A stretch of 64,000 bases of DNA from Acidimicrobiia bacterium (GCA_965214265.1 CBDCBK010000010.1:537369-601368); one strand, 5' to 3'. Shown: positions 23,507 through 49,095, numbered from the stretch's first letter. The notes: generated by a model not told the origin, from the sequence alone. Program-made: numbers and translations.

Positions 23507-23577
23507 ATACCAAAAAAGGCTTGGCCGCTTTTTTCGGGGGTAAGCTTGCCGAAAACTATACAAAAGGTAAAAAGGCC

Positions 23578-25041: not shown

Positions 25042-25043
25042 GC

Positions 25044-25619: not shown

Positions 25620-25621
25620 GC

Positions 25622-26215: not shown

Positions 26216-26219
26216 CAGC

Positions 26220-29929: not shown

Positions 29930-30041
29930 TAGAGCGGCAAGACTGGTATATATTTAGGGCTGGAGGTCGGTTAGTCTGCCGACACAAGCCACTTTTTAGT
30001 CGAGTGCCGTTGGCCCGACGAGCAAGCGGAAGGAAAACAAA

Positions 30042-31832
30042 ATGAGAAAACTGAAATTAGCCATTGCCTTGATGGCTGTCTTGGCGTTGTTGGCTGCGGC
30101 CTGCGGCGGCGATGACGGCGCAGGGGATACGGCTGCTGCGGATGCTGCTGCGGCGGCTGCCGAAGCCGAAGCCGTTGAGGCTCAGGCTGCTGCGGATACG
30201 GCTCAGGCTGCTGCGGATACGGCGCAGGCTGCTGCGGATACGGCGCAGGCCGAGTTGGAAGCCACGCAGGCCGAGTTGGAAGCTACCCGCGCTGCTGCGG
30301 CGGCCGGTGATGCGGACGCGCAGGCGATGTTGGAGGCTGCTGAGGCCGAGGCTGCCACTCAGGCTGCTGCTGCGGCGGCTGCCGAGGCTGCTGCGGAGGC
30401 TGCTGCAATGGAAGCCGATGATGCCCAGAAGGCACTGGCAGAGTCGACGATGGTGGATGCCCCCGAGGTCCGGGAAGCCGAGGTTGCTATGGGTTTCAAC
30501 GCCTGTTGCGCCGATTCGGCCTTTTGGCAGATTCCCGTCGATTTGGGCTGGTGGGATGATTTGAACATAACCATCGTCCCCAACTCGCCTACCTATCACT
30601 ACTTCACCGCCAGCGCCGACGCCATCGCCTGGTTGCGAAACGGTGAAGGCAACGTGGCCCCTGGCTGGGTGCCGGGACTGTTCGGGTCCTTGGAGACCTT
30701 TGGTCAGGAAATCCCACCGATCTTCTTCGCGGACATCTATGTCGGCTATGCCATCCTGGTAGCGCCTGACAGCGATTCGAAGACTGTTATGGAGTTCGTG
30801 GAGGAAGGTATGTCCTTCCCGGACGCGGCCTTGGCGGCCGTGCAGCAGCTGGTCGGCGAAGTTGTCCACATTCCGCCGCACAGCACACAGCAGGCCCAGT
30901 ACACGAACGCGTTCTTCGCCTATCTGCCCGAGTGGTGGGAGGCTTACCAGGAAGACATTTCCGCTTTGGACGGTGAAGGCAACCCCTTGGTGTTGCTGGG
31001 CCGCGACGGCGCGCCACTCCTGGACGATGACGGCAACGTTCAGCCGATTCGCATTACGACCAACGACTGGCGCAATTACGCCAATCCTCAGTACGTTGAT
31101 GATCCCACGATTGTGCAGCTTTCGGCTGTTCCGGGCCGGATCGAGTACGCCATGCCCTATGGCGCTCCGACCCTGGTGCAGATGATGCGCAACGGTTGGG
31201 ATCCGCTGATCAACTTCGGGATGATGATCGAGCACGACCCGTTCTCCCAGCAGACGGCCATCGCCAGCTCCACCACAGGCGGCATCGGCCTATTGGCCAA
31301 CCGCGAGTGGGTGGAGGCGAACAAGGACCTGGCCTATCGGACACTTTCTATCGGCTTTCGGACCTTCGAGTTCCTCGAGGATCCCGAGACCCAGTACCAG
31401 GGGTGGGAGATCGAGGCCAATCTCATCAACGAGAAGCGCCAGTTGAGCATGGAGCCCGAGGACATCGGAATCATCTGGACGACCATCGACCCGTCGTTCA
31501 CCTGGGAGGACCAGGAGGCCCTTTGGGACTTGAGCCTGCCCAGCTACCACCCAGAGACGGTGTTCAGGACCCAGGTGGAACTTCTGAAGGCCAAGGGAGT
31601 CCTGTCTGCGACCTATGACACGCAGGCTGGGCTCGAGCAGTTCTTGTTGGCCCAAGAGCTCTACTATGACATGAAGGGCATGCAGGACCGTTCCGACGTT
31701 CTCTTCGCTAGGACTGAGGGATTGGATCTTTCCGATAGCCAGTCCGCTTTGGTCGAGCAGGCGCAGGCCTACTATGACATCTATGACTTCTATGACGCTG
31801 AGCGCTTCTTGGAGGCTGCCCTTATTGGGTAA
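30042..31832 (+). CDS. ABC transporter substrate-binding lipoprotein (NitT/TauT, NMT1/SsuA-like) with ~130-aa Ala/Glu-rich N-terminal linker, copy 1
   Basis: MRKLKLAIALMAVLALLAAACGG is a lipobox. The low-complexity AAADTAQ/ELEATQA linker is followed by a periplasmic binding domain. Permease and ATPase genes lie downstream. Confidence 0.75.
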   Translation: MRKLKLAIALMAVLALLAAACGGDDGAGDTAAADAAAAAAEAEAVEAQAAADTAQAAADTAQAAADTAQAELEATQAELEATRAAAAAGDADAQAMLEAAEAEAATQAAAAAAAEAAAEAAAMEADDAQKALAESTMVDAPEVREAEVAMGFNACCADSAFWQIPVDLGWWDDLNITIVPNSPTYHYFTASADAIAWLRNGEGNVAPGWVPGLFGSLETFGQEIPPIFFADIYVGYAILVAPDSDSKTVMEFVEEGMSFPDAALAAVQQLVGEVVHIPPHSTQQAQYTNAFFAYLPEWWEAYQEDISALDGEGNPLVLLGRDGAPLLDDDGNVQPIRITTNDWRNYANPQYVDDPTIVQLSAVPGRIEYAMPYGAPTLVQMMRNGWDPLINFGMMIEHDPFSQQTAIASSTTGGIGLLANREWVEANKDLAYRTLSIGFRTFEFLEDPETQYQGWEIEANLINEKRQLSMEPEDIGIIWTTIDPSFTWEDQEALWDLSLPSYHPETVFRTQVELLKAKGVLSATYDTQAGLEQFLLAQELYYDMKGMQDRSDVLFARTEGLDLSDSQSALVEQAQAYYDIYDFYDAERFLEAALIG

Positions 31833-31874
31833 GCTTTCGGTAGCGATTGGCTAGTAGGTAAATAGAGATGCTCC

Positions 31875-31917
31875 GAGCGCGGGGCAGGACGGTAAAACCC
31901 GTCCTGCCCCGCGCTTC
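31875..31917 (+). terminator. GC-rich hairpin between SBP and permease genes (intra-operon attenuator/terminator)
   Basis: gagcgcggggcaggacgg-taaaac-ccgtcctgccccgcgcttc is a perfect 18-bp stem. It is conserved, with a different loop, at 37978..38017. Confidence 0.6.
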
Positions 31918-31959
31918 GGCCTGTAGGTAAGGACCGCGAGGGCGAGGAAGAGAGATACA

Positions 31960-32910
31960 GTGACCACCACAAGCACCGATGTTCTTGATGTGAGAGCGGC
32001 GGCGCATCGTGAAAAGCGGCGCCGCCAGATTGCCTATAGCATCTATCTGGTCCTCGGGTTAATGCTGTTTTTGCTGTTTTGGCAGTTGCTGGCCTCGCCT
32101 TTTTCGCCTTTTTTCTATCTCGTACCGCCGCCCATTGATGCCGTCAGGCACTTCGGGGAGAACCTGTTTTTCAGTCAGCGGATGTTGGAGCGGTATGTTC
32201 ATGCTTGTCCGGATCTGTTGGACGAGTTGGAGTTGACGGGGGGAGGGATGTTCGATCTTCCCGATCGCTGTTTTGGGTATATTCTGCATTTGGTGCGGAC
32301 TACCCGCAATATCATGATCGCAGTTACGCTGGGGACGGTGGTTGGTTTGTCGGTGGGGCTGAGCAGTTTGGTTTTCCCGAAGATCGCGGATGTGGTGACG
32401 CCGATTGCTGGTTTTTTTGGGACTACCCCGATTTTCATAGCGGCGCCTTTTTTCGTGATCTGGTTCGGGATCGAGTATCCCTTGATGACCACCATCGGGG
32501 TGGTTGTTTTCTACACCACCCTTCTCATGTATTTCTTTAGCCGCCGGGCGGCGGAGAATATACCGGTGGGGATCATTGAGTCAGCCCTCACCCTGGGGGG
32601 AGACCGCCGTACTATTTTCCGGTGGGTGTATTTGCCGGGGACGATACCCGAGATCGCGGGAGGCTTTCGTATCGCGTTGGCCGGCGCCTGGGGACTGGGT
32701 ACGCTGGTGGAGGTGCTGGGAATACAGATGGGAGGAGGATTTCTTATTCGTATGTGGAGCTTTGCGATGGGCCTTTTGGAGGGGCCGGCCGCGGTGGTTT
32801 CACTGATTCTTTTCTTCGGTGTGTTGGCTGTGGTAGTCGACGGTATCTTGGTGCTGTTTATCCGTTTCGTCACCAAGTGGTCCGAGGCCGGTCGCCGGCT
32901 GGGTTTGTAG
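31960..32910 (+). CDS. ABC transporter permease (NitT/TauT family, TauC/SsuC-like), copy 1
   Basis: Six TM helices. ESALTLGGDRRTIFRWVYLPGTIPEI matches the EAA-loop motif. Confidence 0.85.
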   Translation: MTTTSTDVLDVRAAAHREKRRRQIAYSIYLVLGLMLFLLFWQLLASPFSPFFYLVPPPIDAVRHFGENLFFSQRMLERYVHACPDLLDELELTGGGMFDLPDRCFGYILHLVRTTRNIMIAVTLGTVVGLSVGLSSLVFPKIADVVTPIAGFFGTTPIFIAAPFFVIWFGIEYPLMTTIGVVVFYTTLLMYFFSRRAAENIPVGIIESALTLGGDRRTIFRWVYLPGTIPEIAGGFRIALAGAWGLGTLVEVLGIQMGGGFLIRMWSFAMGLLEGPAAVVSLILFFGVLAVVVDGILVLFIRFVTKWSEAGRRLGL

Positions 32911-32923
32911 GCAAGGAGGAACT

Positions 32924-33703
32924 ATGTCGTCAACTGTTGTGAGCTTTGAGAATCTGTGGTGTGTGTTCGAGCACCGATCCGGGCAATTGGTGCATGCCCT
33001 TGAGGATGTCAATTTCCATGTCGATCCCGGCGAGTTTGTGTGTGTCGTGGGGAGGTCTGGGCACGGTAAGACCACTCTGCTGAGGGTGCTGGCCGGGCTT
33101 CAGCCTCCTACCGCCGGTGAGGTGAAGCTGGGCGACACTCCCGTGACGGGGCCGGGTAGCGACCGGGCCATGGTTTTTCAGCAGGACACGGTGTTTCCTT
33201 GGTTGCATGTCCGCGAGAACGTTGAATTCGGTCTCAGGGCTAACAAGCTTCCCGAGGACGAGCGGAACGAGATCACCAATTACTGGTTGTCGGCGGTGGG
33301 ACTGGAGGAGTTCGCTGACTCTTGGCCGCGGGAGCTTTCTGGGGGCATGAGAAAGCGGGTGGCCTTGGCGGCGGCGATGGCGGTGGGCTCGGATGTTGTG
33401 CTCATGGATGAGCCTTTTGGGTCTGTTGACTATTTCACGCGCCGTAATCTTCATGAGGTTCTTTTGAATTTGTGGTTTGAGACCAAGAAGACCATCTTCT
33501 TTGTCACCCATGACATTGAGGAGGCGCTGATTCTTGCTGACCGGGTGATCCTCTTGGCTGAGGGCAAGTTGGTGGACGACATCGCGGTTTCTCTCCCTCG
33601 TCCTCGTAACGAGGATGTCCGGGCCACCCCTGAGGCGGTGGGTGTGTTCAAGCTGATCTTGGCGCATCTGGGTATCACCGAGGAGGAGGCGACGAAGGTT
33701 TGA
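32924..33703 (+). CDS. ABC transporter ATP-binding protein (NitT/TauT family), copy 1
   Basis: GRSGHGKTTLLR (Walker A), LSGGMRKRVALAAA (signature), VLMDEPFGSVD (Walker B) and FVTHDIEEA (H-loop). Confidence 0.9.
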   Translation: MSSTVVSFENLWCVFEHRSGQLVHALEDVNFHVDPGEFVCVVGRSGHGKTTLLRVLAGLQPPTAGEVKLGDTPVTGPGSDRAMVFQQDTVFPWLHVRENVEFGLRANKLPEDERNEITNYWLSAVGLEEFADSWPRELSGGMRKRVALAAAMAVGSDVVLMDEPFGSVDYFTRRNLHEVLLNLWFETKKTIFFVTHDIEEALILADRVILLAEGKLVDDIAVSLPRPRNEDVRATPEAVGVFKLILAHLGITEEEATKV

Positions 33704-34920
33704 ACCAGCCTGCCCGCTTCCGAAGCCTTTATTGGATTGGATGGCTGATTTGGGCTGTCTTCCTGGCTCCTTGGTTGCTCATTCAACTGCCTGAAAGTCT
33801 TCCCTTCGTTTCCTGGACACATGGGGATGGTGTGATCAACGTCACGTGGTCGTACCTCGTTTCTTGGCCGGTTTTGTTGCTGGTCTGGCCGGTTGTGTTC
33901 CGCCCGAGTGGGGTCAAGAACCGCCTGGTCAAGATGGGACAGGGGATAGCGGCGGGGCCGGCGATGCTGTTGGCCGGTATGCGCCGCAGCCCGCTCTTCT
34001 TCATCTCCTGGGCGGTGTTGCTGCTAGCGTGGCAAGTGGCGTCTTACATTGCGCCTACGGGAATCCTCGAGCACCCCCTGGTTCCCGGATGGGACTACGT
34101 GTTCGGTGAATCCCTCTCCAGAATGTCCGGGGACTGGACCGTCCTTGGGTTTGACCTCGGGTTTGTAAATTTCCAGGTCGCGGACCTGGCGCCTTATCCC
34201 GCCTATGGCGGAGAGGGGACCGTGCCGGCCATTTTCCTCGCCATCGCTTTTCACTCGGGCGTGACCCTTTTCCGGCTGATGTGTGGCATGTCGATCGGTT
34301 TCACGCTCGGTCTCCTGACCGGATTGGCCATTCCCTATTGGCCGGCGCTGCGCCAGTCCGCTTGGGCGCCCATGAACTTTCTGCGGATGATCCCCCTCCT
34401 GGCGGCGATTCCCTGGTTGCAGTTTGCCCTGGGCTCCACCCTCTTTGGTATCACCATCTATATTGCATTCGGGGTTTGGACGACGCTGGTGGTGGCCACT
34501 ATGAACTCGGTGGCCAACGTGCCTGACCGGTACATCGAGAGCGCCCGTACCCTGGGCGCGTCCCGCCCGTGGACCTATTTCAAGGTGATAGTGCCGGGGT
34601 CGATTCCCGAGTTGCGCACCGCCATGTTGCTCGCCATGGGAGGGAGCTGGTCGCTGGCCATTGCCGCCGAGTTCCTGGGTTTCCCCACCGGGCTGGGATA
34701 TATGGCAGCGGTGGCGGTGCAGGAAACCAACACCGCCCGGCTGGTGATAGTGGCGTTTGTCGTGGCTGGTTATTCTCTCACGACCTTCTACTTGCTCAAC
34801 GAAGGATTCAAAAAAGCGGTTAGTTGGATGCCACAGCGCGCCACCGGGAAGACGGATATCAGCAGGGTGGCCGGGGCGGCCGGAGCGGGGGGCCGCGCGG
34901 AAACCCTAGAGGGCGGATAA
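33700..34920 (+). CDS. second ABC transporter permease (NitT/TauT family) with ~150-aa N-terminal extension, copy 1
   Basis: ESARTLGASRPWTYFKVIVPGSIPEL matches the EAA-loop. Multi-TM. Translationally coupled to the ATPase by a 4-bp overlap. Confidence 0.8.
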   Translation: MNQPARFRSLYWIGWLIWAVFLAPWLLIQLPESLPFVSWTHGDGVINVTWSYLVSWPVLLLVWPVVFRPSGVKNRLVKMGQGIAAGPAMLLAGMRRSPLFFISWAVLLLAWQVASYIAPTGILEHPLVPGWDYVFGESLSRMSGDWTVLGFDLGFVNFQVADLAPYPAYGGEGTVPAIFLAIAFHSGVTLFRLMCGMSIGFTLGLLTGLAIPYWPALRQSAWAPMNFLRMIPLLAAIPWLQFALGSTLFGITIYIAFGVWTTLVVATMNSVANVPDRYIESARTLGASRPWTYFKVIVPGSIPELRTAMLLAMGGSWSLAIAAEFLGFPTGLGYMAAVAVQETNTARLVIVAFVVAGYSLTTFYLLNEGFKKAVSWMPQRATGKTDISRVAGAAGAGGRAETLEGG

Positions 34921-35010
34921 GGCCAGCGCCGCGGAATCAGCGTTCGCGGTTGGGTGCCGCGTCGGGATTGACCATCCTGGTTTTTCCCTGCATGTGAGGT
35001 TGCCGGCCCG

Positions 35011-35916
35011 GTGCTGACCGGCATCGTCTTCGGGTTTATCACGGCGGTGACGCTGGGGATCAACCTTCTGCTCACTGCCGTGGTGGCCCGGCGCTTCGGC
35101 GTGCTGCGCTCCACTACCGCCACTCTGAGCCTGGCCCTCTTGGTGATGGTCGCCTGGGCACTCCTCATCGACGTGCCGTTCGAAATCACCACTGACCAAC
35201 TTGTATTACTGGCCTTCTTGGGCTCCTGTGCCGGCGGAGCGTTCCTGTGCGGCTACACGGCCCTCCGACTCGGTCCGATCTCGGTGGTGAGTCCGATCGG
35301 CGCTCTGGGGGGCGCCATGACGGTGGTCTTCTCATTCTGGTTGCTGGGGGAAAGACCCGGCGCGGTGCAGTGGGCGGGAATACCGATCGCCGTACTGGGA
35401 GCGGTATTGGCATCCGTGGTGATCAAGCGCGGAGTCAAGATTCGACTGGTCACCTGGGGGCCGGTCTTCGCCATGATCGGCGTGTTTGTGGGATCGCTCT
35501 CCAACGCCGGCCTGAAGATCCCCATCAGGGATGGACTCGACTCCAACCTGACCGTCATCACCCAGCGGGTCTACACGGTGGCTTACGTCGCTCTGGTGTT
35601 GGTGATTGTCACCCGGGTGACAGAACAGCGTCGCCGAAGGGGAGACCCCCGGTACGCGGGGAGCCACCCGGTGAAGATTACCTGGAAAACAGGATGGCTG
35701 CTGGGCGTGGTGGGAGTGATCGACGCCGTCTCCTTCATATCATTCGGATACGGTTTGGCGTATGCTCCAGCCTGGCTGATCGGGATCATCTCCCAAAGCG
35801 GACGGATAATAGCCGTGATCGGCGGGGTGATATTCTTCAAAGAACGACTTCAATCCCTGCAGTGGACAGGCATAGCCCTGGTAACGGTCGGCGTGGCCAT
35901 GTCCGTCGCCGGCTAG
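35011..35916 (+). CDS. EamA/DMT-superfamily transporter (10 TM), paralog 1
   Basis: Two EamA halves. GTG start. Preceded by an overlapping 7-codon uORF at 34994..35017. Confidence 0.8.
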   Translation: MLTGIVFGFITAVTLGINLLLTAVVARRFGVLRSTTATLSLALLVMVAWALLIDVPFEITTDQLVLLAFLGSCAGGAFLCGYTALRLGPISVVSPIGALGGAMTVVFSFWLLGERPGAVQWAGIPIAVLGAVLASVVIKRGVKIRLVTWGPVFAMIGVFVGSLSNAGLKIPIRDGLDSNLTVITQRVYTVAYVALVLVIVTRVTEQRRRRGDPRYAGSHPVKITWKTGWLLGVVGVIDAVSFISFGYGLAYAPAWLIGIISQSGRIIAVIGGVIFFKERLQSLQWTGIALVTVGVAMSVAG

Positions 35917-36147
35917 GACCGCTACCACAAAGAGGGCGAACGCTATTCCGTTCTTCCTCTTCGGGGTCCCCTCTCCTCTATGACGACCCGCGCCCCGACC
36001 ACTGCTGTTGGAAAGTTGTTATCGACGAGCTTCCTCACCCCTGGAGAGGAAGCAGCGGGTTTGCGATCCAAAAAATAATGCCCTATTGGTAACAGAACGC
36101 CAAGAGTTGAGTATATTTGAGGTTCAAGCGAGCGGAAGGAAAACAAA

Positions 36148-37937
36148 ATGAGAAAACTGAAATTAGCCATTGCCTTGATGGCTGTCTTGGCGTTGTTGGC
36201 TGCGGCCTGCGGCGGCGACGACGGCGCAGAGGATACGGCTGCTGCGGACGCGGCGGCTGCTCAGGCTGCTGCGGACGCGGCGGCTGCTCAGGCTGCTGCG
36301 GACACGGCTGAGGCTGCTGCTGCTGAGGCGGCTGCTGAGGCTGCTGCGGCGCAGGCCGAGTTGGAAACCGCGCAGGCCGAGTTGGAAGCTACCCGCGCTG
36401 CTGCTGCGGCCGGTGATGCGGACGCGCAGGCGATGTTGGAGGCTGCTGAGGCCGAGGCTGCCGCTCAAGCTGAGGCTGCTGCCATGGCTGAAGAGGCTGC
36501 CGAAGAGGCTGCCATGACAGCCGCAGACGCCCAGAAGGCACTGGCAGAGTCGATGATGGTGGATGCCCCCGGATCCGGGAACTCGAAGTGGCTATGGGTA
36601 TAGGTTTCTGTTGCGCCGACTTTGCCTATTGGCAGATTCCCTTGGAATTGGACTGGTATGACGAATTGGGTATAACCATCGTCCCCAATACGCCTACTTA
36701 TTGGTATCTCACCAATAGCACCGAGACCAATGCCAAGTTGCAGCGTCAAGAGCTTCACATGGCCAATGGCTGGGTGCCCTCACTGTTCGTAGCTCTGGAG
36801 ACCTTCGCTCAGGAGATTCCAGTGATTCACTTCGCGGATATCTTTATCGGCTATGCGGTCCTGGTATCGCCTGACAGCGATTCGAAGACTGCCCTGGAGT
36901 TCATGGAGGAAGGGATGTCCTTCTCCGAGGCGGCCACGGCGGCCGTGGAGCAGTTGGTTGGCGAGGATATCTACATCACGCCGGGTAGCACTACACAGGC
37001 CCAGTACGCGAACGCGTTCTTCGCCTACCTGCCCGAGTGGTGGGAGGATGTGCAGGAAGACATTCCCGTAATTGACGAGGAAGGCAACCCCTTGGTGTTG
37101 CTGGGCCGCGATGGCCAGCCACTCCTGGATGATGACGGCAACGTTCAGCCGATTCGCATTACGACCAACGACTGGCGCAATTACTCCACTCCGAAGTACG
37201 TCGAGGACCCCATTATCGTGGAGCTTTCGGCTGTTCCGGGCCGGATCGATTACGCCATGCCCTTCCAGGCTCCAACCCTGGTGCAGATGATTCGTAACGG
37301 CTGGGATCCGCTGATCAACTTCGCGATGATGTTCGAGCACGACGCGTTCTCCCAGCAGACGGGCATCGCCAGCTCCACCACAGGCGGCACCGGCCTGATT
37401 GCCAACCGCGAGTGGGTGGAGGCGAACAAGGACGCGGTCTACCGGATACTCTCCGTTGCCCACCGGACCTTCGCTTTCCTCGATGATCCCGAGACCCAGC
37501 GAATTGGGTGGGAGATTGAGGCCAATCTCATCAACGAGAAGCGCCTGCTGAGCATGGAGCCCGAGGACATCGGAGTCATATGGGAACAGATCGACCCCTC
37601 CTTTAACTGGGAGGACCAAGAGGCGCTTTGGGACTTGAGCCTGCCCAGCTACCACCCAGAGACGGTGTTCAGGAACCAGGTCGAGGAGCGTAAGGCCAAG
37701 GGAGAGTTGTCTGCGACCTATGACACGCAGGCAGGGCTCGAGAAGTTCTTGTTGGCCCAGGAGCTCTATTACGACATGAAGGGCATGCAGGAACGTTCCG
37801 ACGCTCTCTTCGCCACGGCTGAGGGATTGGATCTTTCCGATAGCCAGGCCGCTTTGGTGGCACAGGCCCGCCACTGGTACGACATCTATAACTTCTACGA
37901 CGCTGAGCGCTTCTTGGAGGCTGCCCTTATTGGGTAA
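36148..37937 (+). pseudogene. ABC substrate-binding lipoprotein, copy 2, disrupted by a 1-bp deletion (~36570) between linker and binding domain
   Basis: It is split into ORFs 36148..36603 and 36588..37937 in different frames. Alignment with copy 1 (ccccgaggtccgggaagccgaggttgctatgggt versus ccccggatccgggaactcgaagtggctatgggt) shows a single missing base. The 1790-bp length is not divisible by 3. Confidence 0.65.
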
Positions 37938-37977
37938 GCTTTCGGTAGCGATTGGCTAGTAGGTAAAAGAGAAGCTC

Positions 37978-38017
37978 CGAGCGCGGGGCAGGACGGGTTA
38001 TCGTCCTGCCCCGCGCT
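37978..38017 (+). terminator. GC-rich hairpin (copy-2 counterpart of the intra-operon attenuator)
   Basis: gcgcggggcaggacg-ggttat-cgtcctgccccgcgc. The stem is identical and the loop differs. Confidence 0.55.
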
Positions 38018-38062
38018 TCGGCCTGATAGGTAAGGACCGCGAGGGCGAGGAAGAGAGATACA

Positions 38063-39013
38063 GTGACCACCACAAGCACCGATGTTCTTGATGTGAGAGC
38101 GGCGGCGCACCGCGCTAGACGGCGAAGCAAGATTGCCTATAGCATCTATCTGGTCGTCGGGTTAATGCTGTTTTTGCTGATTTGGCAGTTGATCGCCTCG
38201 CCTTTTTCGCCCCTTTTCTATCTCATACCGCCGCCCATTGATGCCGTCAGGCACTTCGGGGAGAACCTGTTTTTCAGTCAGCGGATGTTGGAGCGGTATG
38301 TTCATGCTTGTCCGGATCTGTTGGACGAGTTGGAGTTGACGGGGGGAAGGATGTTCGATCTTCCCGATTACTGTTTTGGGTATATTCTGCATTTGGTGCG
38401 GACTACCCGCAATATCATGATCGCAGTTACGCTGGGGACGGTGGTTGGTTTGTCGGTGGGGCTGAGCAGTTTGGTTTTCCCGAAGATCGCGGATGTGGTG
38501 ACGCCGATTGCTGGTTTTTTTGGGACTACCCCGATTTTCATAGCGGCGCCTTTTTTCGTGATCTGGTTCGGGATCGAGTATCCCTTGATGACCACCGTCG
38601 GGGTGGTTGTTTTCTACACCACCCTTCTCATGTATTTCTTTAGCCGCCGGGCGGCGGAGAATATACCGGTGGGGATCATTGAGTCAGCCCTCACCCTGGG
38701 GGGAGACCGCCGTACTATTTTCCGGTGGGTGTATTTGCCGGGGACGATACCCGAGATCGCGGGAGGCTTTCGTATCGCGTTGGCCGGCGCCTGGGGACTG
38801 GGTACGCTGGTGGAGGTGCTGGGACCTCAGATGGGAGGAGGATTTCTTATTCGTATGTGGAGCTTTGCGATGGGCCTTTTGGAGGGGCCGGCCGCGGTGG
38901 TTTCACTGATTCTTTTCTTCGGTGTGTTGGCTGTGGTAGTCGACGGTATCTTGGTGCTGTTTATCCGTTTCGTCACCAAGTGGTCCGAGGCCGGTCGCCG
39001 GCTGGGTTTGTAG
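38063..39013 (+). CDS. ABC transporter permease (NitT/TauT), copy 2 (~97% aa identity to copy 1)
   Basis: Near-identical to 31960..32910 except for N-terminal residues. Confidence 0.85.
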   Translation: MTTTSTDVLDVRAAAHRARRRSKIAYSIYLVVGLMLFLLIWQLIASPFSPLFYLIPPPIDAVRHFGENLFFSQRMLERYVHACPDLLDELELTGGRMFDLPDYCFGYILHLVRTTRNIMIAVTLGTVVGLSVGLSSLVFPKIADVVTPIAGFFGTTPIFIAAPFFVIWFGIEYPLMTTVGVVVFYTTLLMYFFSRRAAENIPVGIIESALTLGGDRRTIFRWVYLPGTIPEIAGGFRIALAGAWGLGTLVEVLGPQMGGGFLIRMWSFAMGLLEGPAAVVSLILFFGVLAVVVDGILVLFIRFVTKWSEAGRRLGL

Positions 39014-39026
39014 GCAAGGAGGAACT

Positions 39027-39806
39027 ATGTCGTCAACTGTTGTGAGCTTTGAGAATCTGTGGTGTGTGTTCGAGCACCGATCCGGGCAATTGGTGCATGC
39101 CCTTGAGGATGTCAATTTCCATGTCGATCCCGGCGAGTTTGTGTGTGTCGTGGGGAGGTCTGGGCACGGTAAGACCACTCTGCTGAGGGTGCTGGCCGGG
39201 CTTCAGCCTCCTACCGCCGGTGAGGTGAAGCTGGGCGACACCCCGGTGACGGGGCCGGGTAGCGACCGGGCCATGGTTTTTCAGCAGGACACGGTGTTTC
39301 CTTGGTTGCATGTCCGCGAGAACGTTGAATTCGGTCTCAGGGCCAACAAGCTTCCCGAGGACGAGCGGAACGAGATCACCAATTACTGGTTGTCGGCGGT
39401 GGGACTGGAGGAGTTCGCTGACTCTTGGCCGCGGGAGCTTTCTGGGGGCATGAGAAAGCGGGTGGCTCTGGCGGCGGCGATGGCGGTGGGCTCGGATGTT
39501 GTGCTCATGGATGAGCCTTTTGGGTCTGTTGACTATTTCACGCGCCGTAATCTTCATGAGGTTCTTTTGAATTTGTGGTTTGAGACCAAGAAGACCATCT
39601 TTTTTGTCACCCATGACATTGAGGAGGCGCTGATTCTTGCTGACCGGGTGATCCTCTTGGCTGAGGGCAAGTTGGTGGACGACATCGCGGTTTCTCTCCC
39701 TCGTCCTCGTAACGAGGATGTCCGGGCCACCCCTGAGGCGGTGGGTGTGTTCAAGCTGATCTTGGCGCATCTGGGTATCACCGAGGAGGAGGCGACGAAG
39801 GTTTGA
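39027..39806 (+). CDS. ABC transporter ATP-binding protein (NitT/TauT), copy 2 (100% aa identity to copy 1)
   Basis: Identical 259-aa translation. Only a few synonymous nucleotide differences. Confidence 0.9.
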   Translation: MSSTVVSFENLWCVFEHRSGQLVHALEDVNFHVDPGEFVCVVGRSGHGKTTLLRVLAGLQPPTAGEVKLGDTPVTGPGSDRAMVFQQDTVFPWLHVRENVEFGLRANKLPEDERNEITNYWLSAVGLEEFADSWPRELSGGMRKRVALAAAMAVGSDVVLMDEPFGSVDYFTRRNLHEVLLNLWFETKKTIFFVTHDIEEALILADRVILLAEGKLVDDIAVSLPRPRNEDVRATPEAVGVFKLILAHLGITEEEATKV

Positions 39807-41023
39807 ACCAGCCTGCCCTCTTCCGAAGCCTTTATTGGATTGGATGGCTGATCTGGGTCGTCTTCCTGGCTCCTTGGTTGCTCATTCAACTGCCTGAAAG
39901 CCTTCCCTTCGTTTCCTGGACATATAGCGATGGTGTGATCAACGTCACGTGGTCGATCCTTGTTTCTTGGCTGGTTTTGTTGCTGGTCTGGCCGGTTGTG
40001 TTCCGCCCGAGTGGGGTCAAGAACCGCCTGGTCAAGATGGGACAGGGGATAGCGGCGGGGCCGCCGATGCTGTTGGCCGGTATGCGCCGCAGCCCGCTCT
40101 TCTTCGTCTCCTGGGTGGTGTTGCTGGCGGCGTGGCAACTGGGGTCTTATTTGGCGCCTCCGGGAGCCCTTGAGCACCCCCTGGTTCCCGGATGGGACTA
40201 CGTGTTCGGTGAGACCTTCTTCAGAATGTCCGGGGACTGGAGCGTCCGCGGGTTTGACCTTGAGTTTGTGGTCCTCGATGTCACGGGACTAGCGCCCCTT
40301 CCCATCTATGGCGGGGAGGCGACTTGGCCGGCCGTGTTCCTCGCCATCGCTTTCCACTCCGGCACGACCCTTTTCCGGCTGATGTGTGGCATGGTGGTCG
40401 GTATGACCCTCGGTCTCCTGACCGGTCTGGCCATTCCCTATTGGCCGCCGCTGCGCAAGTCCGCTTGGGCGCCCATGAACTTTCTGCGGATGATCCCCCT
40501 CCTGGCGGCGATTCCCTGGTTGCAGTTTGCCGTGGGCTCCACCCTCTTTGGTATCACCATCTATATTGCATTCGGGGTGTGGACGACGATGGTGGTGGCA
40601 ACTATGAACTCGGTGGCCAACGTGCCTGACCGGTACATCGAGAGCGCCCGTACCCTGGGCGCGTCCCGGCCGTGGACCTATTACAAGGTGATAGTGCCGG
40701 GGTCGATTCCCGAGTTGCGCACCGCCATGTTGCTCTCCATGGGAGGGAGCTGGTCGCTGGCCATTGCCGCCGAGTTCCTGGGTTTCCCCACCGGGCTGGG
40801 ATATATGGCCAACGTGGCGGTGCAGGAAACCAACACCGCCCGGCTGGTGATAGTGGCGTTCATTGTGGCTTTTTATTCTCTCACGACCTTCTACTTGCTC
40901 AACGAAGGATTCAAAAAGGCGGTTAGTTGGATGCCACAGCGCGCCACCGGGAAGACGGATATCAGCAGGGTGGCCGGGGCGGCCGGAGCGGGGGGCCGCG
41001 CGGAAACCCTAGAGGGCGGATAA
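39803..41023 (+). CDS. second ABC permease, copy 2 (~92% aa identity)
   Basis: Co-linear with 33700..34920. Confidence 0.8.
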   Translation: MNQPALFRSLYWIGWLIWVVFLAPWLLIQLPESLPFVSWTYSDGVINVTWSILVSWLVLLLVWPVVFRPSGVKNRLVKMGQGIAAGPPMLLAGMRRSPLFFVSWVVLLAAWQLGSYLAPPGALEHPLVPGWDYVFGETFFRMSGDWSVRGFDLEFVVLDVTGLAPLPIYGGEATWPAVFLAIAFHSGTTLFRLMCGMVVGMTLGLLTGLAIPYWPPLRKSAWAPMNFLRMIPLLAAIPWLQFAVGSTLFGITIYIAFGVWTTMVVATMNSVANVPDRYIESARTLGASRPWTYYKVIVPGSIPELRTAMLLSMGGSWSLAIAAEFLGFPTGLGYMANVAVQETNTARLVIVAFIVAFYSLTTFYLLNEGFKKAVSWMPQRATGKTDISRVAGAAGAGGRAETLEGG

Positions 41024-41113
41024 GGCCAGCGCCGCGGAATCAGCGTTCGCGGTTGGGTGCCGCGTCGGGATTGACCATCCTGGTTTTTCCCTGCATATGA
41101 AGCTGTCAACGCG

Positions 41114-42010
41114 GTGCTGACCGGCATCGTCTTCGGGTTTATCACGGCGGTGACGCTGGGGATCAACCGTCTGCTCACTGCAGTGGTGGCCCGGCGCTTC
41201 GGCGTGCTGCGCTCCGCTGCCACCACTCTGAGCCTGGCCCTCTTGGTGATGGTCATCTGGGCAATCCTCATCGACGTGCCGGTCGAAATGACCACTGACC
41301 AACTTGTTTTACTGGCCTTCTTGGGCTCCTGCGTCGGCGGGTCCTTTCTGGGCGGCTACACGGCCCTCCGACTCGGTCCGATCTCGGTGGTGACTCCGAT
41401 CGGCGCTCTGGGGGGCGCCATGACGGTGATCTACGCATTCTGGTTGCTGGGGGAAAGACCCGGCGCGGTGCAGTGGGCGGGAATACCGATCGCCGTACTG
41501 GGAGCGGTATTGGCATCCGTGGTGATCAAGCGCGGAGTCAAAATTCGACTGGTCACCTGGGGGCCGGCCTTCGCCATGATCGGCGTGTTTGTGGGATCGC
41601 TCTCCAACGCCGGCCTGAAGATCCCCATCAGGGATGGACTCGACTCCAACCTGACCGTCATCACCCAGCGGGTCTTCACGGTGGCCTTCGTCGCTCTGGT
41701 GTTGGTGATTGTCTCCCGGGTGACAGAACGGCGTCGACGAACGGGAGATGGTCCCCCGTATCCGGTGAGGATTACCTGGAGGACAGGATGGCTGCTGGGC
41801 GTGGTGGGAGTGATCGACGGCGTCTCCTTTATATCATTCGGATACGGTTTGGCGTATGCTCCGGCCTGGCTGATCGGGATCATCTCCCAAAGCGGACGGG
41901 TGATAGCCGTGATCGGCGGGGTGATATTCTTCAAAGAACGACTCCACCACCTGCAGTGGGCAGGCATAGCCCTGATAACGGTCGGTGTGGCCATGTCCGT
42001 CGTCGGCTAG
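41114..42010 (+). CDS. EamA/DMT transporter, paralog 2
   Basis: GTG start overlapped by the uORF ATGAAGCTGTCAACGCGGTGCTGA (41097..41120). Confidence 0.8.
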   Translation: MLTGIVFGFITAVTLGINRLLTAVVARRFGVLRSAATTLSLALLVMVIWAILIDVPVEMTTDQLVLLAFLGSCVGGSFLGGYTALRLGPISVVTPIGALGGAMTVIYAFWLLGERPGAVQWAGIPIAVLGAVLASVVIKRGVKIRLVTWGPAFAMIGVFVGSLSNAGLKIPIRDGLDSNLTVITQRVFTVAFVALVLVIVSRVTERRRRTGDGPPYPVRITWRTGWLLGVVGVIDGVSFISFGYGLAYAPAWLIGIISQSGRVIAVIGGVIFFKERLHHLQWAGIALITVGVAMSVVG

Positions 42011-42029
42011 GATCGCCGCCCGAGGAGGT

Positions 42030-42246: not shown

Positions 42247-43152
42247 GTGTTGACCGGCATCATCTTCGGGTTCATCACCGCGGTGACGCTGGGGATCAAC
42301 AGCCTGCTCACTGCTGTGGTGGTACGGCGTTTCGGCGTGCTGCGCTCTGTCTCCGTTACTGTGACTCTGGCTTGCTTCTTGATGATGGCCTGGGCGGCGC
42401 TGATCGGTGTGCGAGTCGAGATGAATGCCGACCACCTGATCCTGCTGGTCCTGTTGGGCTCCTGTGTCGGCGGGTCCTTTCTGTGCGGTTACATGGCTCT
42501 CCGGGTCGGTCCGATCTCGGTGGTGAGTCCGATCGGCGCTCTGGGGGGCGCCATGACGGTGATCTACGCATTCTGGTTGCTGGGGGAAAGACCCGGCGCG
42601 GTGCAGTGGGCGGGGATACCGATCGCCGTTCTGGGAGCGGTGTTGGCATCCGTGGTGATCAAGCGGGGGACCAAGATTCGACTGGTCACTTTGGGGCCGG
42701 TCTTTGCCTTGACCGGCGTGCTGGTGGGATCGATCTCCAACGCCGGCCTGAAGATCCCCATAAGGGATGGGGTGGATTCCAACGTGACCGTCATCACCCA
42801 ACGGGTCTTCACGGTGGCTGTCATCCTCTTGGTGTTTGTGATCTTCTCCAGGGTGACAGAACAACGACGACGAAGGGGAGATCCCCGGTACGAGGGGAGC
42901 CACCCGGTGAAGATCACCTGGCGGACGGGATGGCTGCTGGGTTTGGTGGGACTGATCGACGGTGCCTCCTTCATATCCTTCGGATATGCTCTGGCGCATG
43001 CACCTGTCTGGCTGATCTCGATTATCTCCCAAACCGGACGGGTTATAGCCGTGATCGGCGGGGTGATGTTCTTCAACGAACGACTCCACAGCCTGCAGTG
43101 GACAGGCATAGCTCTGATATGCGTTGGGGTGGTGATGTCCATCGTCGGTTAG
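42247..43152 (+). CDS. EamA/DMT transporter, paralog 3
   Basis: ~75-80% identical to paralogs 1 and 2. uORF GTGAAGCTGTCAACTAGGTGTTGA at 42230..42253. Confidence 0.8.
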   Translation: MLTGIIFGFITAVTLGINSLLTAVVVRRFGVLRSVSVTVTLACFLMMAWAALIGVRVEMNADHLILLVLLGSCVGGSFLCGYMALRVGPISVVSPIGALGGAMTVIYAFWLLGERPGAVQWAGIPIAVLGAVLASVVIKRGTKIRLVTLGPVFALTGVLVGSISNAGLKIPIRDGVDSNVTVITQRVFTVAVILLVFVIFSRVTEQRRRRGDPRYEGSHPVKITWRTGWLLGLVGLIDGASFISFGYALAHAPVWLISIISQTGRVIAVIGGVMFFNERLHSLQWTGIALICVGVVMSIVG

Positions 43153-43496: not shown

Positions 43497-43901
43497 TCAG
43501 TTCTCGGGGAAGGTGTACTGGAATACCCCGCCGGTGCGGATCATCTCGGCGGCGATGGCGCCCACCAGTTCGGGATGGCGGGCGGCGGCCGAGATGATCA
43601 CCTGTCCCCCCATGCTTTGGCCCACCAGCACGGGCCGATTCAGTTCCAGTTGGCGGATGAGTGCGGCCACGTCATCGCCGTGTTGGGCCATGGTGTAGAT
43701 CTCATCGGGCTTGTCGCTTTCCCCGTGGCCGCGCAGATCGACCGCCACGCACCGGTGATTGGGGGAGAAGTACTTCTCCTGGAGGCCGAATCCTTCCCGA
43801 CTGCCGAAGCCCCCGTGGATGAAAATAATGGCCGGATCGCCGGAGCCTAATTCGTGGTACGCCATGCGGACGCCGTCGGGGTTAGTAATCCATTCAGTCA
43901 T
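43497..43901 (-). pseudogene. alpha/beta-hydrolase paralog with large in-frame internal deletion (N-terminal 116 aa fused to last 18 aa)
   Basis: MTEWITNPDGVRMAYHELGSGDPAIIFIHGGFG...GQSMGGQVIISAAARHPELVGAIA|AEMIRTGGVFQYTFPEN. The catalytic Asp/His region is missing. The breakpoint lies at the short repeat GAIA/DAIAAE. Confidence 0.75.
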
Positions 43902-44206: not shown

Positions 44207-45811
44207 TTGGTCGACAGCCGTCGGCCCGACCAGCAAGCGAACGGAAGGAAAGCGCAAACGAGGAAATTTATATCAGCTATTTCTCTGGTGGCTATCTTGG
44301 CGTTGTTGCCTGCGGCCTGCGGCGACGGCGCGGCGGATACGGCCGCGGCGGACGCGGCTGCTGCTCAGGACGAAGCCGCTGAGGCTGCTGCCACGGAAGC
44401 CGACGAGGCCCAGAAGGCTCTGGAAGGGTCGATGGTGGAGGCCCCCGACATTCGGGAAGCCGAGGTTGCGATGGGTTTTAACGCCTGTTGTGCCGATCTG
44501 GCTTTTTGGCAGATTCCCGTCGATTTGGGCTGGTGGGATGATTTGAATATCACCATCGTTCCCAATTCGCCCACCTATTACTATTTCGCCGCCGGCGCCG
44601 AGGCCATTGCCTGGTTGCGGCGCGGTGAAGGCGCCGTGGCCCCCGGGTGGGTGCCGGGACTGTTCGGGGCGTTGGAGACCTTTGCTCAGGAAGTCCCGCC
44701 GATTTTCTTCGCGGACATCTATGTCGGCTATGCGGTCCTGGTTGCGCCGGACAGCCCCTCCAAGACCGTGCTCGAGTTCGTGGAGGAAGGGATGTCTTTC
44801 CCGGAAGCCGCCAAGGCGGCCGTCCAGCAGTTGGTAGGGGCGGATATTTACATTTCGCCCAGCCCCCAGCAGGCTCAGTACATGGATGCGTTCTTCGCTT
44901 ATCTGCCCGAGTGGTGGGAGGCTTATCAGGAGGACATTGCCGCCTTGGACGAGGATGGCAACCCCTTGGTGTTGTTGGGCCGCGACGGCGAGCCACTTCT
45001 GGACGAGGACGGCAACGTTCAGCCGATTCGGATCACGACCAACGACTGGCGTAACTACGCCAACCCGCAGTACGTCCATGACCCCACGATCATGGAGCTT
45101 TCGGCTGTTCCGGGCCGGATCGAATACGCCATGCCTTATGGCGCTCCGACCCTGGTGCAGATGATGCGCAACGGTTGGGATCCGCTGATCAACTTCGGGA
45201 TGATGATCGACAACGATCCGTTCTCCCAGCAGACGGCGATCGCCAACTCCACTGTCGGCGGCATCGGCCTGCTGGCGAACCGCGAATGGGTTAATAACAA
45301 TAAGGACCTGGCCTACAGGGTGCTCTCTGCCGCCTATCGCACCTTTGAGTTCCTCGATGATCCCGAGACCCAGTACCAGGGGTGGGAGATCGAGGCCAAT
45401 CTCATCAACGAGAAGCGCCAGATGAGCATGGAGCCCGAGGACATCGGGACCATCTGGTCGACCATCGATCCCTCCTTTAACTGGGAGGAGCAGGCGGCGC
45501 TGTGGGACTCGAACCTCCCGAGCTACCACCCCGAGATAGTGTTCGCCACTCAGATCGAGAAGCTGAAGGCCAAGGGGGTGTTGTCCGAGGACTATGACAC
45601 GCAGGCCGGGCTGAAAGAGTTCTTGTTGGCCCAGGACCTCTACTATGAGATGAAGGAATTCGAGATGCGCTCCGACGCACTCTTCGAGAGGGCTTCGGGA
45701 AGGGATCTTTCCCCGGCCCAGGCTGCTCTAATCGCCCAAGCGCAGTTCCACTATGACATCTATAACTTCTATGACGCTCTCCGCTTCTTGGAGGCTGCCC
45801 TCATCGGGTAG
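44207..45811 (+). CDS. ABC substrate-binding lipoprotein, copy 3 (diverged; ATG replaced, probable TTG start; shorter linker)
   Basis: ...RKFISAISLVAILALLPAACGDG lipobox. The binding domain is ~75-80% identical to copies 1 and 2. The copy-1 ATG position reads ACG here. An in-frame TTG lies at 44207. Confidence 0.6.
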   Translation: MVDSRRPDQQANGRKAQTRKFISAISLVAILALLPAACGDGAADTAAADAAAAQDEAAEAAATEADEAQKALEGSMVEAPDIREAEVAMGFNACCADLAFWQIPVDLGWWDDLNITIVPNSPTYYYFAAGAEAIAWLRRGEGAVAPGWVPGLFGALETFAQEVPPIFFADIYVGYAVLVAPDSPSKTVLEFVEEGMSFPEAAKAAVQQLVGADIYISPSPQQAQYMDAFFAYLPEWWEAYQEDIAALDEDGNPLVLLGRDGEPLLDEDGNVQPIRITTNDWRNYANPQYVHDPTIMELSAVPGRIEYAMPYGAPTLVQMMRNGWDPLINFGMMIDNDPFSQQTAIANSTVGGIGLLANREWVNNNKDLAYRVLSAAYRTFEFLDDPETQYQGWEIEANLINEKRQMSMEPEDIGTIWSTIDPSFNWEEQAALWDSNLPSYHPEIVFATQIEKLKAKGVLSEDYDTQAGLKEFLLAQDLYYEMKEFEMRSDALFERASGRDLSPAQAALIAQAQFHYDIYNFYDALRFLEAALIG

Positions 45812-45851
45812 GCTCCCGGTTCGATTGCCTAGTGGATAGAAAAGGCGCCGC

Positions 45852-46025
45852 CAGATCACCGAGGAGGAGGCGACGAAAGCTTGAACCAACCAACCCTCTT
45901 TCGACGGCTGATTCAAAAAGGCCGTTAGCTGGATGCCCCAGCGCACCACCAGGGGGCCGGACATCGCCAAGGTGGCCGGGGCGGCGGGAACGGCAGGCCC
46001 CGTCGAAACCCTGGAAGACAGATAG
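45852..46025 (+). pseudogene. deletion scars: ATPase 3' end (…ITEEEATKA*) + permease-2 5' end (LNQPTLFRR) fused to permease-2 3' end (…AVSWMPQRTTRGPDIAKVAGAAGTAGPVETLED*)
   Basis: Direct alignment to 33660..33730 and 34800..34920. The bodies of permease-1, ATPase and permease-2 are absent from this third unit. Confidence 0.75.
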
Positions 46026-46099: not shown

Positions 46100-46996
46100 G
46101 TGCTGACCGGCGTCATCTTCGGGTTTATAACCGCGGTGACGCTAGGGATCAACAGTCTGCTCACTGCCGTAGTGGCGCGGCGCTTCGGCGTTCTGCGCTC
46201 TGCTGCCGCCACGCTGACGCTGGCTCTCTTGGTGATGGTCGCCTGGGCAATCCTCATCGACGTGCCGCTCGAGATGACCACCGACCACCTGATCCTCTTG
46301 ACCATTCTGGGCACCTGCGTCGGCGCCTCCTTTCTGGGCTCCTATACGGCCCTCCGACTGGGCCCGATCTCCGTGGTAACACCGATCGGCTCTCTGGGGA
46401 CCGCGATGACTGTGGTCTACTCCTTTTGGCTGCTGGGGGAAAGACCCGGCGCCTTGCAGTGGGCGGGAATACCGGTCGCCGTGCTGGGAGCAGTACTGGT
46501 ATCGCTTGTAATCAAACGCGGGACCAGGGTTCGACTGGTCACCTGGGGGCCGGTCTTCGCGTTGATCGGCGTATTCGTAGGATCGATCTCCAACGCCGGC
46601 CTGAAGATCCCCATCAGGGACGGAGTCGACTCCAACTTGACCGTAATCACCCAACGGGTCTTCACAGTGGCCTTCGTCCTGTTGGCGTTGGTGGTTTTCT
46701 CCCGGCTGGGATTTCGACGTCGGCGAGAGGGAGATGACCCTCAATCCCCGATGAGGATCACCTGGAAGACAGGATGGCTTTTGGGCCTGGTGGGACTGAT
46801 CGACGGCGTCTCTTTCATATCATTCGGATACGGATTGGCCTACGCACCGGCCTGGTTGATCGCGATCATCTCCCAAAGCGGAAAAGTGATAGCCGTAGTC
46901 GGCGGGGTGATCTTCTTCAAGGAACGACTCCACCGACTTCAGTGGGCCGGGGTGGGGTTGATAATGGTCGGCGTGATGATGTCCCTCGTCGGCTAA
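46100..46996 (+). CDS. EamA/DMT transporter, paralog 4
   Basis: uORF ATGAAGCTGTCCACGGGGTGCTGA (46083..46106) overlaps the GTG start. Confidence 0.8.
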   Translation: MLTGVIFGFITAVTLGINSLLTAVVARRFGVLRSAAATLTLALLVMVAWAILIDVPLEMTTDHLILLTILGTCVGASFLGSYTALRLGPISVVTPIGSLGTAMTVVYSFWLLGERPGALQWAGIPVAVLGAVLVSLVIKRGTRVRLVTWGPVFALIGVFVGSISNAGLKIPIRDGVDSNLTVITQRVFTVAFVLLALVVFSRLGFRRRREGDDPQSPMRITWKTGWLLGLVGLIDGVSFISFGYGLAYAPAWLIAIISQSGKVIAVVGGVIFFKERLHRLQWAGVGLIMVGVMMSLVG

Positions 46997-48041: not shown

Positions 48042-48122
48042 GGCACTCAGTTTAGTTGTCGGGTGTCACCACCGGTCCTGGTACAGGATGACTGTCCGGA
48101 CCGGTTTGAGGAGTGACGGCCC

Positions 48123-48965: not shown

Positions 48966-49095
48966 GTCACTCAGCTTAGGTTGTCAGCCCGGCAGAGGAG
49001 GGCGAAAGGGCAACAGGTATTTTGGTGGTCCAGTCGGAGTCAAATGCCCGCCCGGTGTTCGCCGGTCCCAAGTGAACGGTGTTCGCCGCGGGTCC

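Follow-up and report, generated by a model that had tools for sequence, protein, structure and literature searches.

Duplicate bacterial genes can evolve in concert, as seen with rRNA operons and with the nifH copies of Rhizobium etli, and in eukaryotic paralogs such as the opsin and RH/MHC-type pairs gene conversion is opposed by selection. One ATP-binding cassette (ABC) importer may also be served by several binding proteins, for example HisJ and LAO in Salmonella. The OppA1-5 proteins of Borrelia are another such set (PMC7822543). For tufA and tufB of Salmonella, RecA-dependent gene conversion has been established experimentally and mismatch repair was found to shorten the tracts (PMC5485169); long-lasting concerted evolution has also been described in mammalian gene pairs (PMC2720389). 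Here we analyse two adjacent units of an ABC importer in a stretch of 64,000 nucleotides from an Acidimicrobiia bacterium (GCA_965214265.1, CBDCBK010000010.1:537369-601368), called the window below and numbered from its first letter. The span under study, 30042-42010, opens with the first binding-protein gene and closes with the second EamA gene. Each unit carries five genes on the + strand (Table 1), encoding a 596-residue lipoprotein named S here, a 316-residue permease-1, a 259-residue ABC ATPase, a 406-residue permease-2, whose start overlaps the ATPase stop, and an EamA protein of ~300 residues. Very probably, gene conversion has overwritten the core of these units separately in each lineage while selection has kept two unit types in an old tandem duplication.

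As in tufA/tufB, paralogs are closer within a genome than orthologues are between genomes, silent sites are homogenised and the tracts are bounded by the end of similarity. Unlike tufA/tufB, the locus is a direct tandem operon of five genes in which only the interior is homogenised. Moreover, unit-specific codons and a loop survive in or beside the tract, and the flanking binding-protein genes form separate orthologous lineages. Homogenised stretches next to conserved divergent islands, with fixed differences enriched in amino-acid changes, are reminiscent of the eukaryotic paralogs in which conversion is opposed, but here they occur in a bacterial tandem operon and the islands fall in parts of a transporter that should come into contact with the binding protein or the substrate. 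Within the library searched, there was no paper on this locus, on the S protein family or on gene conversion in ABC importer operons. The process, concerted evolution by gene conversion opposed by selection, is already known, and the locus is a new, clean example of it.

The two units are direct repeats with 91.8% identity over 5915 alignment columns (self-BLAST), and their divergence is unevenly distributed. The ATPase copies are 99.2% identical in nucleotides and 100% in amino acids (6 synonymous differences), the permease-1 copies 97.6% and 95.9%, the permease-2 copies 92.6% and 89.2%, EamA1 and EamA2 93.5% and 88.6%, and the mature domains of S1 and S2 83.3% and 76.9%. An earlier note on this DNA, made by eye, had put the ATPase at 100%, permease-1 at ~97%, permease-2 at ~92% and the binding protein at ~80%, all in line with the measured values. 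Its figure of ~85% for EamA was too low because the second copy has been largely overwritten by the first type in the lineage of the window and L002. The same note had allowed that synonymous divergence might turn out to be uniform. Instead, synonymous divergence (dS, NG86 method) between the units is 0.030 for permease-1, 0.033 for the ATPase, 0.104 for permease-2, 0.082 for EamA and 0.342 for S. The ratio of non-synonymous (dN) to synonymous divergence lies between 0.67 and 0.77 in permease-1, permease-2 and EamA, and is 0.44 overall for S1-S2.

The mosaic is finer than the whole-gene scale, identity in windows of 100 nucleotides ranging from 64% to 100%. The near-identical core contains only 13 differences in 1593 nucleotides and includes perfect runs of 414, 227, 226 and 216 nucleotides. 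Other high-identity blocks (30021-30149, 30250-30349 and 34349-35148) cover the S signal peptide with part of the linker, and extend from the 3′ half of permease-2 into the 5′ end of EamA. Heterogeneity among genes was significant at 857 four-fold degenerate sites (chi2 = 30, P = 5e-6), and the longest identical run, from permease-1 into the ATPase, was 185 sites long, as compared with 70 on average over 100,000 permutations (P ~1e-4). Silent sites are therefore homogeneous beyond chance, as they are under concerted evolution.

Both units were found directly after the corresponding xanthine-dehydrogenase-family genes in six other Acidimicrobiia genomes, probably sponge-associated like that of the window. 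Seven-genome comparisons below comprise the window (W), L002 (A), L001/L004 (B), L003 (C), L005 (D), L007 (E) and L008 (F); L002 matches the window at 96.6% identity across 21.8 kb. Genomes further removed (L010-L024, L030 and L031) carry a single unit. Within genomes, dS between the ATPase copies is 0.03 in W, 0.01 in A, 0.00 in B, 0.11 in C, 0.04 in E and 0.08 in F, whereas it runs from 0.26 to ~1.1 between genomes. Neighbour-joining grouped the ATPase copies of a genome with 100% bootstrap support in W, A, B, C, E and F and 74% in D. Paralogs are thus closer than orthologues for the ATPase in six of the seven genomes, and the core copies of permease-1 are likewise nearer within a genome than to their orthologues elsewhere. 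The S genes, in contrast, form one clade of all unit-1 copies and another of all unit-2 copies, each with 100% support, and their dN does not exceed 0.097 within a clade, compared with 0.125-0.204 between clades. In trees and sliding windows alike, homogenisation is confined to the tract and the orthology of S is retained.

Since S1 and S2 form orthologous clades across genomes, the duplication is old and preceded the last shared ancestor of at least seven genomes. The near-identity of the core has been regenerated repeatedly within each lineage, a pattern of concerted evolution by gene conversion. Comparisons of orthologues show purifying selection on S1 and S2 alike, dN/dS being ~0.11-0.16 for the more distant pairs (for example dN 0.079 and dS 0.69 for W1-E1, and dN 0.077 and dS 0.48 for W2-E3). 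Of the two alternatives proposed in the earlier note, conversion homogenising the centre is borne out by the six related genomes, in which the core groups by genome and S by orthology. Its wider suggestion of transporters evolving a new substrate range in situ gives way to the long maintenance of two types, since the duplication predates the split of at least seven genomes.

Mechanistically, homologous recombination between the direct repeats would have made repeated one-way transfers of sequence between the units, independently in each lineage. Differences have been wiped out throughout the ATPase, over the 3′ two-thirds of permease-1 and, more patchily, in permease-2, EamA, the S 5′ leader and conserved stretches of S. 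The process would correspond to RecA-type gene conversion between direct repeats, as measured for the tuf genes.

Tract limits differ among genomes, as expected of independent events. In L002 alone the tract reaches the 3′ end of S: at 31610-31810 its two copies are 99% identical, compared with 88% for those of the window. The unit-1 copy of L002 resembles the unit-2 copy of the window there (98%), therefore the transfer in L002 went from unit 2 to unit 1. EamA2 is of the EamA1 type in W and A, not in B and C (dS 0.073 for W2-B1 versus 0.338 for W2-B2). A single simple donor for the EamA1/EamA2 differences was rejected, the pattern being reticulate. In L005 homogenisation is limited to permease-1 codons 161-240 and the initial 40 codons of the ATPase. 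The six ATPase differences of the window are private to this genome, mostly to one copy, and are new mutations that arose after the last conversion, while the remaining permease-1 differences are unit-specific and common to L002 and L001. The ATPase genes of W and A differ more from each other (dS 0.08-0.11) than the two copies do within either genome, which places the latest conversion in each after their split. Conversion also enters S in patches while leaving the amino-acid clades intact: between S1 and S2, dS is 0.24-0.39 in W, A and B, compared with 0.53-0.69 between the S1 orthologues of these genomes and those of D, E and F. A donor within the window for the divergent S2 patches was rejected, since S3, an orphan binding-protein gene downstream, is even further from S2 than S1 is.

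To locate what persists between the units, sites were called unit-specific when no residue was common to the seven unit-1 and the seven unit-2 copies. There are 58 such sites among the 459 residues of the S domain, 15 in permease-2, 4 in permease-1 (positions 23, 40, 44 and 255) and none in the ATPase. Twelve of the 15 permease-2 sites fall in residues 139-168, a hydrophilic stretch between predicted membrane helices, upstream of the conserved permease domain. Permease-1 codon 255 is ATA or ATC (Ile) in every unit 1 and CCT or CCC (Pro) in every unit 2, and three to eight codons away on either side are synonymous variants common to the paralogs of a genome and differing between genomes. A tract running over codon 255 would erase this three-base difference; its survival in seven lineages thus argues that selection removes such events.

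The same tendency is seen at the nucleotide level. Sites with disjoint states between the units in the seven genomes are non-synonymous and synonymous in the ratio 77:3 in S, 17:0 in permease-2 and 4:0 in permease-1, and are absent from the ATPase. For S in the four closest genomes, fixed differences number 100:22, as compared with 139:112 for other variable sites (P = 3e-7), saturation and conversion also removing synonymous fixed differences. This excess shows retention of amino-acid differences, not adaptive fixation. The densest block in S is 53-68, where 14 of 16 positions differ, and many other unit-specific sites lie where a predicted strand ends on its C-terminal side or immediately beyond (15-17, 45-51, 70-78, 139-146, 256-259 and 278-281), positions which we take to form the cleft in this binding-protein fold. 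Diversifying selection on specificity, the second alternative of the earlier note, is upheld insofar as unit-specific differences are conserved in seven genomes and overwhelmingly non-synonymous; dN/dS above 1 was not found.

Single-unit outgroups carry the type-1 state at 32-33 of the 58 S sites and the type-2 state at 13-14. They are nearer to type 1, therefore type 2 is the derived, faster-changed lineage, and the S2 branch has accumulated ~3x more amino-acid change than the S1 branch. Type 1 is thus close to the single-unit outgroup state, and the two types differ in S, in the permease-2 loop and in four permease-1 residues, not in the ATPase. Conversions erasing functionally important differences would be eliminated by selection, and the high divergence of S would add a passive barrier to conversion. 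The two types most likely represent two related but distinct substrate specificities, or docking preferences, on an interchangeable engine, as suggested by the distribution of these sites.

A further arrangement was encountered in L025 (6523-11998), a single unit with a type-1 S (58 of 58 sites), a type-1 permease-1 (4 of 4) and a type-2 permease-2 (15 of 15). This chimera most probably arose by unequal crossing-over in the homogenised core and amounts to a natural domain swap. Strict co-evolution of the S type with the permease-2 loop type, which we also considered, is weakened by it.

S begins with a lipoprotein signal (...LALLAAACGG, lipobox LAAC), followed by a repetitive linker of ~115 residues rich in Ala, Glu and Gln and by the 459-residue domain. 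Copies and genomes differ in how long this linker (30100-30450 and 36200-36550) is and in the pattern of its repeats; in S3 it is much shorter. More than 100 close homologues of S were found, none of them a named protein; those carrying labels all come from metagenome genomes of Acidimicrobiia or unclassified bacteria. Several of these genomes bear the title Candidatus Spongiisociaceae, and many of the isolate names resemble, in our reading, sponge-metagenome bins.

No match to S was found in Pfam or NCBIfam, and PDB sequence searches with S alone or with a shallow family profile returned low-complexity noise. A profile search of 1.84 billion representative proteins, however, uncovered a wider family of 430-480-residue proteins. 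All ten remote relatives scanned match NMT1/NMT1_2, seven of them passing a gathering score. A profile including these relatives reached CmpA (2i48, E = 3.4e-6), ThiY (3ix1), SsuA (2x26) and 3e4r in the PDB, the last being labelled there as a nitrate transport protein and described by Foldseek as alkanesulfonate-binding SsuA. AlphaFold gave a model with pLDDT 51 from 31 close homologues, rising to 92.9 when the alignment was deepened with remote relatives (AF2, pTM 0.89). The best Foldseek matches of this model were SsuA, TauA, ThiY, Thi5 and NrtA (probability 1.00, target TM-score 0.55-0.69); it also shows an insertion and a large helical C-terminal part. S is thus predicted to be a divergent NMT1-type solute-binding protein, the expected partner of NitT/TauT importers, and a cognate binding protein of the NMT1/SsuA/NrtA fold is indicated by both remote homology and the predicted fold. 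The label of solute-binding protein in the earlier note had been a guess, with no Pfam match behind it; it has now gained support along these two lines.

The other components point to the same class. The ATPase (Pfam ABC_tran, 2.6e-30) has a Walker A motif GRSGHGKTT, a signature LSGGM and a Walker B motif VVLMDE, and its best NCBIfam models are SaoA, TauB, SsuB and NtrCD, all scoring below their equivalog cut-offs. Both permeases belong to BPD_transp_1 and score best with SaoP, TauC, SsuC and NtrB, far below the equivalog cut-offs. ATPase and permeases therefore place the importer in the NitT/TauT group (TC 3.A.1.17), of which it is no named member. In these best model scores, and in the predicted SsuA/TauA/NrtA fold of S, it resembles SsuABC, TauABC, NrtABCD/CmpABCD and ThiXYZ. 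Unlike these named importers, it has two different permease genes flanking the ATPase, a permease-2 with an N-terminal extension of ~170 residues, a binding domain of 459 residues with the insertion and helical C-terminal part, a long Ala/Glu-rich linker and no Pfam match, and an EamA gene that is always attached. All four EamA copies match Pfam EamA in two stretches, as expected of a two-repeat protein of ~300 residues in the EamA/DMT superfamily.

In the window the S2 frame is interrupted at ~36553 (36540-36560), where a run of G is one nucleotide shorter than in L002 (GGG to GG), while the rest of the frame is open: L002 has CCCCCGGGATCC and the window CCCCCGGATCC. The S2 orthologues are intact and constrained (596 residues in L002, 585 in L001). 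An exact look-up of the two S2 open reading frame fragments gave no match. The frameshift represents either a very recent loss, creating a pseudogene, or a base-calling error.

Several points count against our interpretation. The second specificity may have been lost recently in the window, unless the base call is wrong. Positive selection was not detected, as no dN/dS exceeds 1 and no window of 50 S codons has dN above dS. The non-synonymous excess is partly expected from synonymous saturation among distant genomes. Divergence alone can block recombination, so that the persistence of S is perhaps partly passive. Conversion is not universal, since L005 shows little homogenisation, with an ATPase paralog dS of 0.69. 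If the L025 unit is functional, the pairing of S type and permease-2 loop type is not obligate. Finally, all the genomes are metagenome assemblies.

Other readings of the data were weighed. The core might be kept identical because it is shared: S1, S2, the orphan S3 and others would plug into interchangeable translocators in a modular uptake system, in which permease-1 Ile/Pro 255, the permease-2 loop 139-168 and S 53-68 would act as switch residues setting the choice of partner or substrate. We regard this as unlikely. As with HisJ/LAO and OppA1-5, the transporter has additional orphan binding-protein genes next to it, S3 in the window and as many as four S genes in L007. Unlike those systems, the permeases are duplicated too, with unit-specific residues.

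A neutral, self-reinforcing barrier is also unlikely. In such a scenario the similar parts would be converted while divergence of the outer parts blocks recombination, with no selection for two specificities. Conversion does require stretches of identity, and mismatch repair shortens tracts (PMC5485169); the most homogenised gene also encodes the most conserved protein, and L025 shows that a mixed unit can exist. A barrier of this sort does not account, however, for the persistence of the single codon 255 difference between homogenised flanks in seven genomes, nor for fixed S differences that are so largely non-synonymous when other variable sites are near ~1:1. In addition, unit-specific residues are conserved in each clade at a within-clade dS of up to 0.8, and conversion does enter S, as the lower paralog dS indicates, yet amino-acid differences remain.

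Rapid change confined to the outer genes (S, EamA and permease-2) after a recent duplication, under diversifying or relaxed selection and with no conversion, is highly improbable. The rather high dN/dS of permease-1, permease-2 and EamA, the accelerated S2 branch and the S2 frameshift would fit it, but synonymous divergence itself differs tenfold among genes, and the ATPase copies group by genome though dS between genomes reaches ~1. The orthologous S1 and S2 clades, which make the duplication old, refute it. Turnover of entire units, in which unequal crossing-over would repeatedly delete and re-duplicate them instead of leaving internal tracts, deserves equally little credence as the main cause. 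The numbers of S, EamA and hydrolase genes do vary among genomes and L025 resembles a crossover product, but turnover would homogenise S and the permease-2 island, whose orthology is preserved throughout the seven genomes, and homogenisation is internal to the unit with limits differing by genome; we retain it as a side process. Least credible is an artefact of assembly or polishing that mixed the copies, or a synonymous constraint on the ATPase from, for example, the long antisense open reading frame overlapping each copy (32930-33667), because, metagenome assemblies though they all are, the pattern recurs in six independent ones with contig names in long-read and SPAdes styles, unit-specific codons persist within the core, and ATPase synonymous sites diverge freely between genomes (dS 0.26-1.1), on which ground the constraint was rejected.

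Conversion opposed by selection thus remains our preferred explanation, and the surroundings of the units document the original duplication and later rearrangements. The duplication extended into the xanthine-dehydrogenase-family gene upstream, taking in its final ~75 bases together with a short adjoining spacer; the relic of this gene in the inter-unit spacer is the mark of the original junction. EamA3 is an extra copy that arose by a partial duplication starting in the 3′ end of permease-2. S3 is mainly type-1-like, with the type-1 state at 42 of the 58 unit-specific sites. The third unit to which it belongs is degenerate in the window, its permease-2 being reduced to the two ends with ~1.07 kb gone, while L004 (19804-21058) retains S3, permease-2 and EamA of this unit and L003 has a slightly different deletion. 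Unequal crossovers are shown, as far as these sequence comparisons go, to explain the varying numbers of S, EamA and hydrolase genes, the degenerate third unit and the L025 chimera.

Table 1. Coordinates of the tandem units, their genes and neighbouring copies in the window
Feature	Position	Strand	Basis or remark
Tandem unit 1 (S1, permease-1, ATPase, permease-2, EamA1)	30021..35922	+	self-BLAST
Tandem unit 2, gene order as unit 1	36127..42016	+	self-BLAST; both units also in L002, L004, L003, L005, L007, L008
S1 lipoprotein, predicted 459-aa NMT1-like (SsuA/TauA/NrtA-type) solute-binding domain	30042..31832	+	translation, remote homology, predicted fold
S2, type-2 binding protein, frame split	36148..37937	+	open reading frames 36148-36603 and 36588-37937
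Permease-1 copy 1 (BPD_transp_1)	31960..32910	+	Pfam; NCBIfam SaoP/TauC/SsuC-like
Permease-1 copy 2	38063..39013	+	97.6% nt to copy 1, dS 0.030
ABC ATPase copy 1	32924..33703	+	Pfam ABC_tran; NCBIfam SaoA/TauB/NtrCD-like; motifs in translation
ABC ATPase copy 2, protein identical to copy 1, 6 synonymous differences	39027..39806	+	
Permease-2 copy 1, 406 aa, BPD_transp_1 in C-terminal half	33700..34920	+	Pfam
Permease-2 copy 2	39803..41023	+	92.6% nt to copy 1, dS 0.104
EamA1, DMT-family membrane protein	35011..35916	+	Pfam EamA, 2 stretches
EamA2, mosaic, mainly overwritten by EamA1-type sequence in W/A lineage	41114..42010	+	dS; mosaic of shared states
Homogenised core copy 1	32123..33715	+	counterpart 38226-39818; 13 differences/1593 nt
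Homogenised core copy 2	38226..39818	+	list of differences
Permease-1 codon 255, ATA (Ile) in unit 1, CCT (Pro) in unit 2	32722..32724; 38825-38827	+	unit-specific in 7/7 genomes
Permease-2 divergent island, codons 139-168	34114..34203 (counterpart 40217-40306)	+	12/15 unit-specific residues
Relic of xanthine-dehydrogenase-family gene 3′ end	36022..36118	+	matches 29856-29955 at 84%
EamA3	42247..43152	+	42037-43161 matches 40904-42019; Pfam
Truncated hydrolase gene	43497-43901	-	among partial copies downstream
S3, third orphan binding-protein gene	44207..45811	+	self-comparison
Permease-2 remnant in degenerate unit 3	45838..46019	+	~1.07 kb deleted vs L004
EamA4, degenerate unit 3	46100..46996	+	self-BLAST; Pfam

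Upstream, the genes at 22220-29929 are conserved together with the cassette and encode two enzymes dependent on pyridoxal phosphate (PLP), two deaminases and a molybdenum enzyme of the xanthine dehydrogenase family (FAD/2Fe-2S subunit and large subunit). Together with the hydrolases downstream, these enzymes give only a hint of a nitrogen-containing organic, possibly heterocyclic, substrate. The tandem genes of the cytidine/dCMP-deaminase family (25044-25619 and 25622-26215) form a small mosaic of their own: in their first 100 nucleotides the paralogs are 97% identical in the window and 100% in L001, compared with 93-96% between orthologues, and identity is 72% at the 3′ end. This pair is probably a second, shorter conversion tract. 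Downstream, five tandem alpha/beta-hydrolase paralogs of 279-280 residues, 70-89% alike, occupy 47202-52086 on the minus strand, and the truncated copy listed in Table 1 is a sixth. Their copy number differs among related genomes, orthologues are closer than paralogs (97% to L003), and no sign of concerted evolution was seen among them.

The lowest G+C content of the window coincides with the homogenised core (56-57% at 32001-34000 and 38001-40000, versus ~62-65%), with a strong excess of T over A. This is the opposite of the outcome of GC-biased conversion and probably reflects the codons of hydrophobic membrane proteins. An Rfam scan of the whole window detected one tRNA-Pro only and no leader RNA, and a promoter and terminator scan gave no more than chance expectation. 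The tRNA-Pro(CGG) lies at 21931-22007 on the minus strand. Elsewhere, 7260-10919 (minus strand) encodes a 1219-residue protein with an SLH domain and at least nine RCC1 repeats, the DNA having a repeat family of 111-nucleotide period, and 14476-17627 carries selA and selB, which belong to the selenocysteine machinery; a selC tRNA was not among the features reported for the window.

Taken together, these results make the locus an unusually clean natural case of conversion against selection within one bacterial operon, in which seven genomes serve as replicates with single-codon resolution. They show that paralog identity in copies of this kind says nothing about the age of a duplication, which would be dated here ~twenty-fold too young. 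They also single out a few residues as probable determinants of specificity, or of docking by the binding protein, in NitT/TauT-type importers. A lipoprotein family labelled "hypothetical", and met so far only in metagenome genomes of the Acidimicrobiia type, can be annotated as a divergent SsuA/NrtA-type binding protein, which helps the annotation of symbionts. Should uptake here prove to be modular, with several binding proteins sharing the core, gene conversion would help to keep the module compatible and would not be mere noise, and the locus would offer a ready map of specificity determinants for a binding-protein family that domain databases do not cover and that has expanded in sponge symbionts.

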